Source: Octopus sinensis (lineage: Eukaryota). From it: DNA of 64,000 nt. The number at the start of each line of letters is the position of its first letter. Position 1 is the first letter of the stretch. Position numbers and translations under genes: made by a program. Where the stretch lies: assembly GCF_006345805.1 (NCBI RefSeq), contig NC_043009.1, positions 28,582,001-28,646,000 of the forward strand, written 5' to 3'. Positions 2,254 through 61,335 of the stretch are shown in pieces. Below the pieces are notes generated by a model, which was given only the letters and a program-made list of their open reading frames with translations, was not told the origin of the DNA and made no database searches.

Positions 2254-2335
2254 GTGATCAGCTTGAAAAATTGTTAAGACAATTGGATATTTTCCTACTT
2301 TTCTTAACATGAAACTAATGGTAGCCTTAATTCAC
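2254..2335 (+). ncRNA. Decayed minimal hammerhead ribozyme in the pLTR downstream of the Penelope endonuclease
   Basis: gc-TTGAAAA-at TGTTAAGA...TCTTAACA t-GAAA-ctaatgg-TA-gc: 8-bp stem II, GAAA, GUA triplet; weak stem I. Confidence 0.45.
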
Positions 2336-2595
2336 AAAAAAAGAAATTACATTCACCAATGCGGTGTTGAGCACCCACTTTCATTGTTCGACATTTACAT
2401 ATATGTTTGTGTGTGTGCATATATATGTGTGTGTGTGTATAAATAAGTGTGTGTGTGTGTATTTATGAGTCACATGTACACATCCATAGATGCATGCAAG
2501 AATGTTTGGTAGTTGAGTATTGATGGTTTCATACAAGCAAAATATCAATATGTTCATCTAATCCTCAGTGAGTAAATACACTAATTGACACTCAT

Positions 2596-2680
2596 ACACG
2601 CAATTACACACACACGCAATTACACACACACGCAATTACACACACACGCAATTACACACACACGCAATTACACACACATA
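2596..2680. repeat. 16-bp minisatellite (cgcaattacacacaca) x about 5
   Basis: Direct tandem copies. Confidence 0.9.
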
Positions 2681-3774
2681 CGCATACACAAATACACACA
2701 ACATATACACAAATACACATATCCATGTCAGCATATAAAGTGGAGATAAGCTGTTGATGATGAGGTTGATATATGTTGATACATATATATGTGCATGTAT
2801 ACATATGTATGCATATATAAATAGTATATATATATAATATATATATATATATATATATATATATATATATATATATATATATATATGTATAAGTAGATGT
2901 ATATATATACATCTATATATACACTTACATATAAACATGCATTAACTATGTTTGTATATGGACGTTAAACGATGATGATGATGATGATGATATATATATA
3001 TATATATATACATACATATATACATATATATATATATCTATATACATTTACATATATGCATGCATTAACTATTATACATACATACATATATGTATTATCT
3101 ATGTGTATGTATATATATATATATATGTATATATATATATATATATATATATACACATATACACATATACACATATATATTTATATATCCATGTGTGTGT
3201 GTGTGCACACACAACTGAGAGTGTATGTGTGTGTGTGTGTGTGTGTGTGTGTGTGAAAAACCAAGAAAGTGCAAGAACAAGAGTGATCTAGACAGACAGC
3301 AGAGAATCCATCGTTAATGTTACATATCTCGTTATATCGTTATTGAATCACACAAGAGCATAACATATTTCAGAGAGCAACTCTTGTCTGTACAAAGGAA
3401 GGAAGGAGAGAGACAAAGAAAAACAGAAAGAAATACAAAAAAATAACCAGCAATGCCGGAGGAGGTAGCATGCAAATTGGGCTCAGAGATAGATTGATTC
3501 TGTTAAAACTAAACATTGACTGAGCTAGCACGAGAGATTGGATTAATGTCAGGAGGATAATGCAAATAAGAATTATAGCTTGATGGAAGGGAAGAAGAAG
3601 AAGAACAGCAAGTTTAATATTTTCTGAAATACAAGAATATTTGGGATGGTGCTCAACATTGGTTTGCATCAAATGAAACAGTTGGGAAATATTGTTACTC
3701 CTAGATATATTGTGGAGTAAATTCTGCTCCCTGTTACATAGCTGTGCCTGCTTCAATATCTGATTCTTTTTTGT

Positions 3775-4065
3775 GAAAGCTCATGGCTTAGTGGTTAGGA
3801 GTGTTCGGCTCAGGATTGTAAGGCTGTGAGTTCGATTCCTGGTGGCGCCTTGTATCCTTGAGCAAGATACCTTATTTCACATTGCTCCAGTCCACTTTGT
3901 CAGCAAAAGTGAGCTGTACCTGTAATTCAAAGGGGTCAGCCTTGTCCCATTCTGTGTCATACTGAATATCCCTGAGAACAATATCAAGGGTATGAAGGTC
4001 TGTCGAGTACTCAGCCACTTACACGGTTAATTTCACAAGCAGACTGTTCTGATAGAGTGCTAGTC
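3775..4065 (+). mobile_element. tRNA-derived SINE (family C)
   Basis: A-box tggcttagtgg, B-box gagttcgattcc, central tccttgagcaagat motif; a related copy lies at about 27300-27590. Confidence 0.65.
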
Positions 4066-58031: not shown

Positions 58032-58237
58032 TTAATACTACAAAGAAGACTTGCAGGAAAATACTTTACAATTTTAGACATAGCTTCATCAGAACCTCGA
58101 TTATGAAGTGCAATTTATTTTGGAAATAATTTATCCTTTTATAAAGAATGGCATCATAATGAGAAAAGTCAATAAAAAGATGTATAAAAAAAAGTGTGTT
58201 CAAAATGTATTTGGATGCATTAATGGAAATATACATG

Positions 58238-59889
58238 TCAGGTTGGTGCAAAAGTAAGGGCTGATTTTTTAGAAAACAGTTTTAGATAGTATTTCTTGAA
58301 ATTGTACCTCTCACAATGTTTTAAGAGTGTCACAATTAGTAATTTATACATTTTTTATTCAGATTCTGATTGTATTAACCTTCTACTTTATTCACTCCCA
58401 TGTTCATCCTGTCTAAAGATCACATTAGACATGTCTTACTCTATGAGTTTCATAAAGGTGTCAATGCAAGCACAGCAGGAAAGTGTCTTTAGAGAGTTTA
58501 TAGGGATGATAGAGCGAGTGAAAAATGATGCAGGAGATGGTTTTCTCACTTCAGAAGAGGGGAAGCTGTTGTCACAGAAAATCCAACCACTACTTGTAGA
58601 GAACTTACAGAGCAGTTTAACATAGCCTATACAACTGTTCTATGCCAACTGAAAAGGATCGGAAACGTTTCAGTGGTTGGAAAATGGGTCCTGCATGAAC
58701 TGTCCCCAGAGAATCTACAATAGCATGTTGTTTGTTGTGAGTCATTGCTTTCACAACACTTTAAGGGATCATTTTTAGGAATGTTTGTTATAGGTAGGTG
58801 ATGCGAAGTAGATCCTTTACTATAATGCTAAACGCTGCTGTTCACAGATCAGTCGAGGAAGAAGACCAGTTCAACAACCAGGAGGAGGACTTCATCCAAG
58901 GAAGATCATGTTGAGTGTATGGTGGGATGCTGAGGGAATTGTCCATTACGAACTGTTAGACAACAATCAAAAATGATTACTGCTAATCTCTACTGTGATT
59001 GACTCCATCATTTGAAAGCAGCTTTAAACAGAAAGTGACCCTGCTTAGTCAACAGAAAGAGCATCATCTTCCACCATGATAACACTCGTCCTCACACAGC
59101 TCGATTGACCAAAGGTCTCTTGGAAGAGCTTGGTTGAGAAATATTGCTTCATCCTCCATATTCTCCTTCTGATTATCACTTGTTTCGGGGATTAGAGAAC
59201 CATTTGAATGGTGTTCAGTTGACATCAAGGGAAGAGTTTGAAAATAAGTTGGATTCATATTTTGCATCAAAACCTAAACAATTTTACAAGCATGGCATTT
59301 ATAATCTTGTTATCAGATGGAATGAAGTTCTAGAAACCAATGGAAATTACATTAATGAATAAATATTGTCTTAATATCTAAAATGTCTTAATGATGGACT
59401 TTTTCATTTTTAGTAGAGACCTTTTTAGTCGAACCAATTCTACTATATGGCTCAGAAACCTGGACGTTATCAAAGAAGTTTGAGAGGCAGTTGGATGGAA
59501 CCTACACTCGCCTCCTTATGAGAGCTCAAAATCTCTCGTGGAAGTGCCATCCAACCAAAATGCAAATATATGGGAAACTACCACGTGTGTAATCTCTTGT
59601 GAAAGGTAGGAGAGTCCAGTTTGCTGGACATTGTTGTAGAGCTGAAAAAGAAGTAATTTCTACTCTTCTCCTCTGGAAGCCATCTACTCGCAATACCAGA
59701 GGGCACACACTCTCCTACCCTGATGTAATCTCCAGGGATACAGGCATCCAGCAACAGGACCTCCGTAATGCCATGATGGACCGTGAAGTCTGGCGTAGCA
59801 TGGTAAATTCCATTGTCTCGACCACGGTCGAACAATGATGATGATGATGAGAGACCTTAAAATAGGCCATTACTTTTGCACCAACCTGG
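58238..59889 (+). mobile_element. Decayed mariner with both TIRs
   Basis: TIRs caggttggtgcaaaagtaa / ttacttttgcaccaacctg; motifs WVLHEL, LHPRKIMLSVWWD, HHDNTRPHT, HPPYSP..SDYHLF. Confidence 0.9.
59424..59849 (+). mobile_element. 5'-truncated RTE LINE nested in the mariner 3' end
   Basis: EPILLYGSETWTL...LDGTYTRLL...RRVQFAGHC...MMDREVWRSMV; (GAT)n tail; 9-bp TSD agagacctt at 59415-59423 and 59850-59858. Confidence 0.9.
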
Positions 59890-59954
59890 TACATACATAC
59901 ATACATACATAATATATACATAGATACATACATACATACATACATACATATATG

Positions 59955-61335
59955 AGTTTAGAGGGATATATTATCTGGGCAGATACCGTGGTGACTCTCA
60001 GTTATCCTCCAGGTAATGGCTAACCACATCGATAAGTATTTACCATCTATGGCTTGTAGGAATTGTCACTCACATTGTGTAAATTCCTTTGATACATAAT
60101 TCTGTGTTCACTTCACTGGATGGTAATATTATCAGGAGCGTATATTTGCAATAATTATAATGAGAGAGAATAGGAAGACTGATATATCCTCAAAATATAT
60201 TTCATTTTATTTTTCAGTATATCATACACCATACTTTTATGGTGATGGCAATCATGAAAATATGCTTTGTGACATTGTAAAATAAAAGCAAATAAATTTT
60301 AGAGGATGTACCAGTTTCCATATTTTCTATCTTTATAATTACTGCATATATATGTTAAATAAAATGAGATAACACAGCCAAGGCTGTGTGGAATCTTCGG
60401 GACATTTATAAAGAGAAAGTTAGACTTACAGCTGTTTCTGGGATATTCAACTGAGACGATGTGAGATGATTAAATAGAGGTAAATAGTAGAGTTCAATAT
60501 AAAGAGTTATGTGGAAAAGGAAGGAAATAAGGAGTATATAGGGAAATAGGAGAATGAAAGTAAAAATAAGAATAAATATATAAAAAGATGTTATAGCTGC
60601 AGTTCCATTATCCAAGGAAAGTGTTGTGTAGAATGGGTAGAAAGGCTTCTTGTCTGTGGTATGAAAATTCCAATAGCAGTTCGTATATTGTCATTACGAA
60701 TGGAAAGTATGGAGACATACGTTCCATGCGCTGTTCATTGAAAGGGGTCTTGGTTTTGCTGTCGCATTTTATTTAACATATACATGCTCACACAAGACCC
60801 CACATTAGACTCCTCACTTGTATCATTATTGAACTGAGAGTTTAGCTACAGTCCTTCCATAGCACTTACATAGCATTGCCTGCCACCTTGGGTTTTCTGG
60901 AAACCAATAGCTCTCATATATATATATATATATATATAAACGTATTGGTAACACTAGGGTTGGTGATTGCCAATAACATGCTAGGAAAAATAGGAAGTTT
61001 ATACAGTATTGCATGATGGAATTTTTTGAGCCCCTAATTTTATGGGGAAATAGGGATAGGGTACTAGCATATTTAAGTGGGTTCAGTGAGTGAATGTGCA
61101 ATGGAATGTGGGTGCAGGTGATTCCTGAAAATCTGAGCTTTTAATGATTGTTGGGTATGAAAGATAATTGTTAATTAATAAGTGGTTCTGTCGATAATTA
61201 TTTCATGTGAGTGTTGAAGGGTGTAGGAGGATGGGGGAATTTCCTTTAATCCTGTTAGTGGAAATATGTTCATTCATGACCATAAAGGAATTGACCTTTT
61301 GGAATCTATTGTTTAATAAAGTAAGGAGAATCAAT
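59955..61335 (-). mobile_element. Highly decayed Penelope-like element with half hammerhead
   Basis: Weak EN-like HIHSLNPLKYASTLSLFPHKIR; downstream tatccca-GAAA-CAGCTG-TA-agtct (60422-60447) with stem II partner ggata at about 60609-60613. Confidence 0.4.

Follow-up and report, generated by a model that had tools for sequence, protein, structure and literature searches.

Minimal hammerhead motifs with natural variants of the 3-8 core pair in repeat families of Octopus sinensis, several of them Penelope-linked

We analyzed a stretch of 64,000 nucleotides from Octopus sinensis (G000:C13:28582001-28646000 of a 2.72-Gb assembly; the whole stretch is called the window below) for minimal hammerhead ribozyme motifs. 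The window consists of AT-rich, microsatellite-rich animal DNA, with a repeat content of cephalopod-like appearance. A first-pass annotation had listed hammerhead folds at ten positions, and all ten were found to match real motifs within a few bases, with the cores as stated. Together with one more site at 55374 this gave 11 real sites, which reduce to eight independent insertions, because 12855 and 13086 form a tandem duplicate and the pairs 39392/39942 and 5245/5386 are inverted partners. Each insertion represents a repeat family, referred to here by its window position. The layout stem I - N3UGANN8A - stem II - GAAA - stem III - UH - stem I was present in all eight families and no significant sequence similarity was detected among them, in agreement with the earlier description of unrelated families with one architecture. 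The 3-8 pair is C3-G8 in five families (24590, 34801, 39948, 55383 and 60422), U3-A8 in two (2263 and 5392) and G3-C8 in one (12898). CUGAUGA, CUGAAGA and CUGACGA had been counted as core diversity, which they are not, as they differ at the free N7 position only; CUGAAGA at 34801 is moreover private to the window copy, with CUGAUGA in 24 of 25 copies of that family. Both an extra nucleotide after A9 and the pair G10.1-C11.1 are found in 12898, and 5392 has the G-C pair without the extra base. The base of stem II is a G.U pair in 24590 and is mismatched in 39948, 34801 and 60422.

The window was scanned with a permissive type I descriptor, written post hoc with the candidates already known, that misses 2263, 34801 and 60422. 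Nine matches with a Watson-Crick 3-8 pair were found, compared to a mean of 1.25 and a maximum of 4 in 100 block-wise dinucleotide shuffles, a comparison of the kind that the first-pass annotation had proposed for the whole genome. Matches with a non-Watson-Crick 3-8 pair numbered six (shuffle mean 2.58, maximum 6). The nine matches comprise six of the sites listed earlier, the real family at 55383, and 53811 (+, A3-U8) and 57303 (-, C3-G8), which have no relatives among the loci compared and are probably chance matches. The window had been called a dense set, and its density is indeed above average (excess of about 7.8 matches per 64 kb against about 13.6 per 600 kb, with slightly different stem II limits), but these are independent, unrelated insertions piled up and not a cluster.

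Stronger evidence than the descriptor counts is available, because every site belongs to a genome-wide repeat family. For seven of the families the genome itself was searched, the best 40 candidates were scored and 20-30 loci were kept. The first look returned 765 candidates for 39948, 716 for 12898, 204 for 5392, 1371 for 24590, 1552 for 2263, 1625 for 34801 and 1019 for 60422, figures that are not copy numbers. Among the best copies the core was intact in 30/30 (39948), 26/30 (12898), 14/30 (5392), 25/25 (24590), 20/25 (2263), 24/25 (34801) and 13/20 (60422). The U3-A8 state is a family trait, with U3 in 24/25 copies of 2263, and U3 in 27/30 and A8 in 29/30 copies of 5392. The latter family is old (about 80% identity) and the 24590 family is young (98-99% identity).

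Past the ribozyme the copies run on for about 100-250 nt to fixed 3' ends (at about +140 and +200 in the G3-C8 family); on the 5' side they are truncated to a variable extent and often have an inverted partner. Such a pattern is described for Penelope-like elements (PLEs; PMC8557442; this and the other publications are cited from the parts available to us), and 5' truncation, an inverted 5' partner, a defined 3' tail and microsatellite neighbors were all observed here. In the 2263, 12898 and 24590 families the hammerhead lies 0.4-1.3 kb downstream of reverse transcriptase (RT) and GIY-YIG endonuclease sequence, and a terminal-repeat position in an element with RT and C-terminal GIY-YIG was thus found for three of the eight families. 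The 24590 motif sits at the 3' end of a PLE that has an open reading frame (ORF) with RT and a GIY-YIG-type domain (L169/L167), ending some 1.3 kb upstream on the same strand; a same-strand endonuclease end was present at about this distance in 5/25 loci, and the Pfam support was weak (RVT_1 E=5e-4, below the curated cut-off). For 12898, L282, L283 and L286 were found to have collinear RT and endonuclease frames on the strand of the motif, about 1.0-1.3 kb upstream of it. GIY-YIG scored above the cut-off in one of five proteins scanned (E=3.6e-5), and the Atlas neighbors of this family were HTH_animal/GIY-YIG clusters at 0.95-0.97. For 2263, 13 of the 15 loci with an endonuclease piece carry the hammerhead 400-1000 nt downstream on the same strand, with RT further upstream in several of them. 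Pfam missed several PLE ORFs entirely and the best PDB sequence match reached only E=0.9; CX2-5CxxC linkers were visible in L282/L286, L348 and L368. A 1,160-aa ORF in L168 and window ORFs at 16.8-19.4 kb were tried as PLE sequence and rejected, as they belong to an unrelated long interspersed nuclear element (LINE). In one G3-C8 PLE a transposase gene, which we take to be Mariner-like, is inserted in the 3' region (L282:481-1371, -).

Table 1. Features in the window and, in the last row, loci of a hammerhead family outside it. Positions are those of the window unless a locus is named.
Feature	Position	Strand	Remarks
Penelope-like GIY-YIG endonuclease, broken C-terminal remnant	1666..1860	+	Upstream of the 2263 hammerhead; tblastn E=3e-5 to PLE-like ORF of L285
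Type I minimal hammerhead, U3-A8, UUGAAAA at 2263-2269	2253..2335	+	Shared element end 2210-2426; long stem II, near-palindromic stem III; predicted cut after A2323
Inverted 5'-truncated partner of the 5392 element	5203..5283	-	Half hammerhead 5245-5283; 79% identity to 5395-5474
Type I minimal hammerhead, U3-A8, UUGAUAA at 5392-5398	5386..5432	+	Element 5203-5598; G10.1-C11.1; 10-nt palindromic stem III; predicted cut after C5426
Type I minimal hammerhead, G3-C8, GUGAACA at 12898-12892	12855..12905	-	3' end of autonomous Penelope-like family; 7-bp stem I, 5-bp stem II, stem III AAUAUU; predicted cut after U12862
Second G3-C8 hammerhead	13086..13136	-	Within 231-bp tandem duplication 12737-13210, 99% identical, includes TA microsatellite
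Type I hammerhead, CUGAUGA at 24590-24584	24505..24596	-	Element 24309-24618; 61-nt stem II arm, palindromic stem III; predicted cut after A24511
Decayed copy of CUGAUGA family (core 34801)	34786..34846	+	Element 34494-35003; one stem II mismatch, CpG-decayed palindrome; predicted cut after A34833
Inverted copy of 499-nt retrozyme-like unit	39153..39639	-	Hammerhead 39392-39455
Full 499-nt unit, CUGACGA, 12-nt palindromic stem III	39638..40138	+	Hammerhead 39942-40004
Further CUGAAGA hammerhead family	55374..55443	+	Element 55115-55544; overlooked in the first-pass annotation
Half hammerhead, CUGAUGA family	60423..60458	-	Element 60345-60935; internal deletion through core and 5' stem II
CUGUNGA (U6) family loci	L334-L343, L354-L365, L367-L369		e.g. 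G000:C1:169642-169676

Based on these data we consider it likely that the motifs are minimal type I hammerheads located in the 3' terminal repeats of eight unrelated families, which would cut in pairs, probably with the assistance of the element's own protein, in the RNA of the source elements. Three of the families are shown to be Penelope-like, one is a non-coding 499-nt tandem unit and four are likely derived from Penelope elements. A transcript running through tandem elements would bring two motifs together, and the palindromic stem III strands would then pair between copies, because the monomer hairpins are predicted to be unstable: the self-duplex of stem III was computed at -6.4 to -15.8 kcal/mol in seven of the eight families, and every monomer hairpin had a positive value. 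The earlier suggestion that the mostly palindromic stem III suits dimers is thus favored by the modeled self-duplexes of the family copies, though only weakly for the G3-C8 family; in the window copy at 34801 the palindrome has decayed. Cleavage 3' of NUH (after H17) would free an RNA of unit length, on which reverse transcription would start about 100-250 nt beyond the ribozyme. The insertions in the window are themselves probably inert. It is established that any Watson-Crick pair at 3-8 suffices for the placement of G8, so that a reduced activity is likely retained in the G3-C8 family. An engineered C3G/G8C exchange gives back part of the cleavage of a PLE hammerhead that depends on the PLE protein (PMC11167929), and in a full mutagenesis it was the sole rescue within the CUGA motif (PMC9901934).

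The G3-C8 family had 3,923 matches to a scaffold that allows any base at positions 3, 7 and 8 (none in the control), with G3-C8 in 96 of the first 100 matches listed, as counted by eye; a flank-anchored pattern gave 2,946 matches. Among 100 compared copies, G3-C8 was present in 92, and 12898 falls outside the published C3-G8/U3-A8 core criterion. In the same copies variants at a frequency of at least 10% were seen at 6/11 free positions but at only 1/40 paired or core positions (Fisher p=1.6e-4). The first-pass annotation had treated G3-C8 as one of the core classes. It is a single family: pattern searches of the genome did not find a second one, of 16 further candidates one was a decayed-looking single and the others proved to be LINE coding sequence or to lack stem I, and two small G-C clusters were misparses on the opposite strand of other elements. 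The family was also found on contigs from four sequencing runs with four organism labels, and no RNA run was listed as carrying it. The contigs have no bearing on expression, and are silent on the 3-8 pair because the last 30 bases of the stretch compared, which hold the core, are listed without differences, even at a known A/G variant.

Relatives of this family were sought with a related endonuclease as protein query; 150 of 4,724 candidates were scored and 40 examined. Two related lineages (B and C), 36-51% identical in protein to the G3-C8 family, carry a homologous motif at their 3' ends. Among the copies that could be parsed, C3-G8 was found in 12/12 of lineage B and 17/19 of lineage C, whereas the window lineage had G3-C8 in 27/28. 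The fourth pair of stem II was A-U in 12/12 of B and 18/19 of C, and G-C in 24/28 of the window lineage. Loci without a parse (8/30, 0/11 and 3/20) stand outside these counts. Since the related lineages keep C3-G8 and the stem II pair covaries, the difference between the homologous motifs is, on sequence comparison, a natural double compensatory change at a tertiary pair. The prevalence of C3-G8 suggests that G3-C8 is the derived state; the endonuclease tree, which has 46 rows, a midpoint root and a bootstrap that did not converge, does not suffice on its own to polarize the exchange.

Two other deviations from the core were detected outside the window. A family with CUGUNGA, i.e. U at position 6 (U6), had 11,318 exact matches (control 0) and is absent from the window. 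In the first 100 matches listed, counted by eye, U6 was present in 100, C3 in 99, G8 in 98 and A or U at H17 in 99, and N7 took all four bases. The motif is invariant in copies whose flanks are only 70-90% alike, and in three loci it lies downstream of a PLE ORF with RT and GIY-YIG. This family is possibly more surprising than the G3-C8 family. The second deviation is found in lineage C (L413-L432, e.g. G000:C19:19447000-19453500), a young lineage with long open frames in which A9 is changed to C. A core otherwise intact around a Watson-Crick 3-8 pair, as proposed earlier, therefore describes the window families but not the genome, where U6 is fixed in a huge family and C9 occurs in a young lineage. 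Additionally, a G6 motif, CUGGAGA ... GAAACAGUU, was found repeated (G000:C1:3199249, 4884557, 6513748, 7386633 and 7422449); it could be one more variant of the core, or a repeat may simply match here by chance.

Genome-wide counts were made for one pattern class (stem II of at most 34 nt, stem III AC...GU) against a reversed-pattern control, with some double counting. C3-G8 was found 56,596 times against 7,126 in the control, an 8-fold excess, U3-A8 41,235 times against 14,467, and C3-G8 with a base other than A at position 6 40,294 times against 9,682. The expectation that searches based on CUGAUGA miss motifs was borne out, as the latter two groups escape CUGANGA; judged by the excess counts of this pattern class they make up about half of all motifs. 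Generic G3-C8 patterns showed no excess (3,893 against 5,823, and 325 against 359), and A3-U8 showed little (11,280 against 9,476), with no A3-U8 family evident. An excess of U3.G8 (20,544 against 9,596) was rejected as a real class, as it is largely the CUGUNGA family in the wrong register, plus decay. When 60 evenly spaced 10-kb stretches (600 kb) were scanned with the descriptor, 15 C3-G8 matches were obtained against 1.0 expected, compared to 5 against 3.8 for U3-A8, 2 against 1.4 for G3-C8, 1 against 3.2 for A3-U8 and 9 against 2.0 for A3.G8, the last partly from one ATG microsatellite. This sample confirms the excess of C3-G8 only, and the excess of U3-A8 consequently rests on the whole-genome count and the fetched families. 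In seven U3-A8 families, chosen for repetition or a visible stem II, 28/35 stem I positions were paired compared to 17.3 after permutation (p=4e-4), with a pattern blind to stem I. At least six more U3-A8 families exist outside the window. L346-L349 hold two PLE families, 66% alike, which both have U3-A8 hammerheads with compensated stem I changes, one of them with a 748-aa open RT and GIY-YIG frame. L344 and L345 are single insertions, each of them an inverted pair in which stem I is good and the cores have a U3.G8 wobble.

With at least 3,900 copies of G3-C8 and at least 11,000 of U6, it is conceivable that both are natural ribozymes that act as protein-assisted catalysts in recently mobile elements, and that the core itself evolves; we put this forward tentatively, with less confidence than the reading of the motifs as paired hammerheads.

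A number of observations qualify the motif assignments or weigh against the reading as paired hammerheads. With a stricter descriptor 5392 was the sole match in the window. Rfam gave no match at the gathering score within the window, and no hammerhead was among the 150 of 418 weak matches listed or in five further loci. The folding z-scores of the monomers were unremarkable (-1.9 to +0.3), and G10.1-C11.1 is absent in several families. For 5392, 34801, 55383 and 60422 the searches for an ORF link (3-kb loci; the window only for 55383) gave scattered, inconsistent or no matches. In the G3-C8 family, the conservation of core and stems does not significantly exceed that of the flanks (1/40 against 7/89 positions; p=0.26 with 8 flank positions), and its variants are not independent events. 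Its stem III self-duplex is the weakest (-0.2 kcal/mol), a G3.U17 wobble that extends stem I is predicted to be 1.3 kcal/mol more stable than the open core, and no homologous motif was found behind L389 and L391, its closest relatives in the tree. In lineage C the change of A9 to C is present in 16/19 copies and stem III is non-palindromic, which suggests mobility without a canonical ribozyme: amplification of this young lineage does not need one. Finally, insertion in vitro works without cleavage (PMC11167929), and Naiad PLEs occur without hammerheads (PMC8557442).

Some of these points, namely the young C9 lineage without a palindrome, the weak dimer stem and G3.U17 competition of G3-C8, its flanks that are about as conserved as the core, and target-primed reverse transcription that does not need cleavage in vitro, are what one would also expect if the variant-core motifs (G3-C8, U6 and C9) derived from hammerheads that no longer cut, and were kept or carried along as a folded signal for the element's protein or for the priming of reverse transcription. 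In the published data available to us, moreover, all single changes in CUGA have low activity (PMC9901934), which speaks against U6, and RNA-seq reads were not found to end at the cut site (PMC11167929); an A6C hammerhead is reported to prefer Mn2+ (PMC7151607). The G3-C8 lineage, however, differs from its relatives by two transversions that together re-form precisely the 3-8 tertiary pair, along with a compensated stem II pair, as selection on a catalytic fold predicts. The U6 family likewise varies only at N7 and at H17 (A/U), positions that catalysis leaves free, with flanks diverged as given above. We regard a loss of cleavage in the variant-core motifs as unlikely.

The 39948 family raises the question whether the families are mainly non-autonomous retrozymes, spread through small circular RNAs, rather than the ends of autonomous PLEs. 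The window and each of the 29 further loci can be placed on a single 499-nt unit, which is non-coding (longest frame 69 codons) with a GC content of 31%. Because several loci have longer-than-unit copies, and L171 has three units 499 nt apart in tandem, this family satisfies, on sequence grounds, the definition of a non-LTR (long terminal repeat) retrozyme. An array family of similar kind was seen in tandem CUGAUGA hammerheads with about 558-bp spacing (G000:C1:257506-258667, 397635-400170 and 4044176-4045342). The 2263, 12898 and 24590 families, however, continue upstream into RT and GIY-YIG, the other families are dispersed truncated ends and not arrays, and the predicted fold of the 499-nt circle is not better than that of shuffled sequence (z=-1.3), so that such an origin of the families in general is highly improbable.

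Chance matches in AT-rich repetitive DNA, for which the post hoc descriptor, the single match of the strict scan, the empty Rfam result, the weak folding z-scores, the two singletons and some spurious repeated matches (e.g. in LINE coding sequence) could be quoted, have next to no credibility, and are already refuted for the eight families, given the excess in the window, in the 600-kb sample and genome-wide, the stem I pairing that the pattern had not requested and the consistent place behind PLE ORFs.

The window also holds the LINE mentioned above (16797-19403, +), presumably RTE-like, in which three frames hold an endonuclease, an RT (E=1e-25) and a cysteine domain resembling a PHD finger, and with a close relative in L168. 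Tandem repeats of 159, 162, 265 and 66 bp (19674-20130, 15900-16342, 25918-26445, 34080-34204 and 35621-35839) are probably SINE-like (short interspersed nuclear element) or local duplications.

Hammerheads occur in almost all PLEs, although they act weakly in vitro, were not required for insertion in one assay and are missing from one clade. Related lineages that differ at C3-G8, G3-C8 and C9, together with the huge U6 family, make their role in PLEs testable and show which of the 'invariant' bases selection trades. Censuses based on CUGANGA, as well as Rfam models, heavily undercount such genomes. If G3-C8 and U6 were active, about half of roughly 100,000 minimal hammerheads in this genome would be invisible to CUGANGA descriptors, and the C3-G8 and G3-C8 sister lineages would be a natural experiment on whether cleavage matters for retrotransposition.

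The presence of many PLE minimal hammerheads in one genome, including U3-A8, is already known. Heterogeneous families, inverted pairs, dimer cleavage and U3-A8 motifs (about 1,300 compared to about 2,000 canonical ones in Schistosoma) were published by Cervera and De la Peña in 2014 (PMC4209133), and natural U3-A8 was first reported by Perreault in 2011 (PMC3088659). Other genomes carry more than 6,000 motifs in 16 families, or up to 120,000 in axolotl (PMC7229834). The radiation of ribozyme-bearing Penelope or retrozyme elements proposed in the first-pass annotation is hence real as a very large Penelope-linked set, but as a phenomenon it is not new (PMC4209133). What appears to be unreported is a fixed natural G3-C8 core, otherwise found only as an engineered mutant. 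We found no report of natural G3-C8 or U6 in the available parts of the literature (PMC6155905, PMC11014351, PMC7151607, PMC6962438 and the Fig. S3 rows of PMC4209133 included), provisionally, as Lünse 2017 may list them.

The families described here resemble the PLE minimal hammerheads of PMC4209133 in the type I layout, a palindromic or absent helix III and, apparently, an extra nucleotide after A9 in several families. They also share the many unrelated families per genome, the mostly solo truncated copies, the opposite-strand pairs 100-700 bp apart, the terminal repeats beside ORFs with RT and GIY-YIG, and the U3-A8 subtype. PLE minimal hammerheads are reported to cleave weakly and as multimers only (PMC4209133; PMC6765202). 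The short-stem-III hammerheads of Lünse, Weinberg and Breaker 2017 (via PMC6765202) are likewise associated with PLEs; the dimer cleavage is reported for theirs. In contrast, G3-C8 is fixed in one family here and in none of the Fig. S3 rows compared, which include U3-A8 and U3.G8; several families here have 8-12 nt palindromes, long stem II arms or no G10.1-C11.1, and the totals are about ten times the 2,000-9,000 per genome of PMC4209133. The 2263 and 5392 families show the same compensatory 3-8 change as the natural U3-A8 motifs (PMC3088659) and those of the Schistosoma Cercyon PLEs (PMC4209133), and differ from them in abundance and host only.

In comparison to metazoan non-LTR retrozymes (PMC7229834; bioRxiv 10.64898/2026.07.22.740005), the 39948 family likewise has a tandem unit that is non-coding and low in GC and holds a single type I hammerhead, as well as copies that exceed unit length. 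Its unit of 499 nt is slightly above their quoted 150-450 bp, and its copies are mostly dispersed with inverted 5' partners. The closest counterpart of the G3-C8 family is the engineered C3G/G8C mutant (PMC11167929; PMC9901934; PMC3884650), in studies according to which the 3-8 pair must be Watson-Crick and the exchange rescues activity, partially, also in a PLE hammerhead. The family has the same swapped pair, but here it is natural, fixed in thousands of copies and accompanied by U17 instead of C17 at the predicted cut site.

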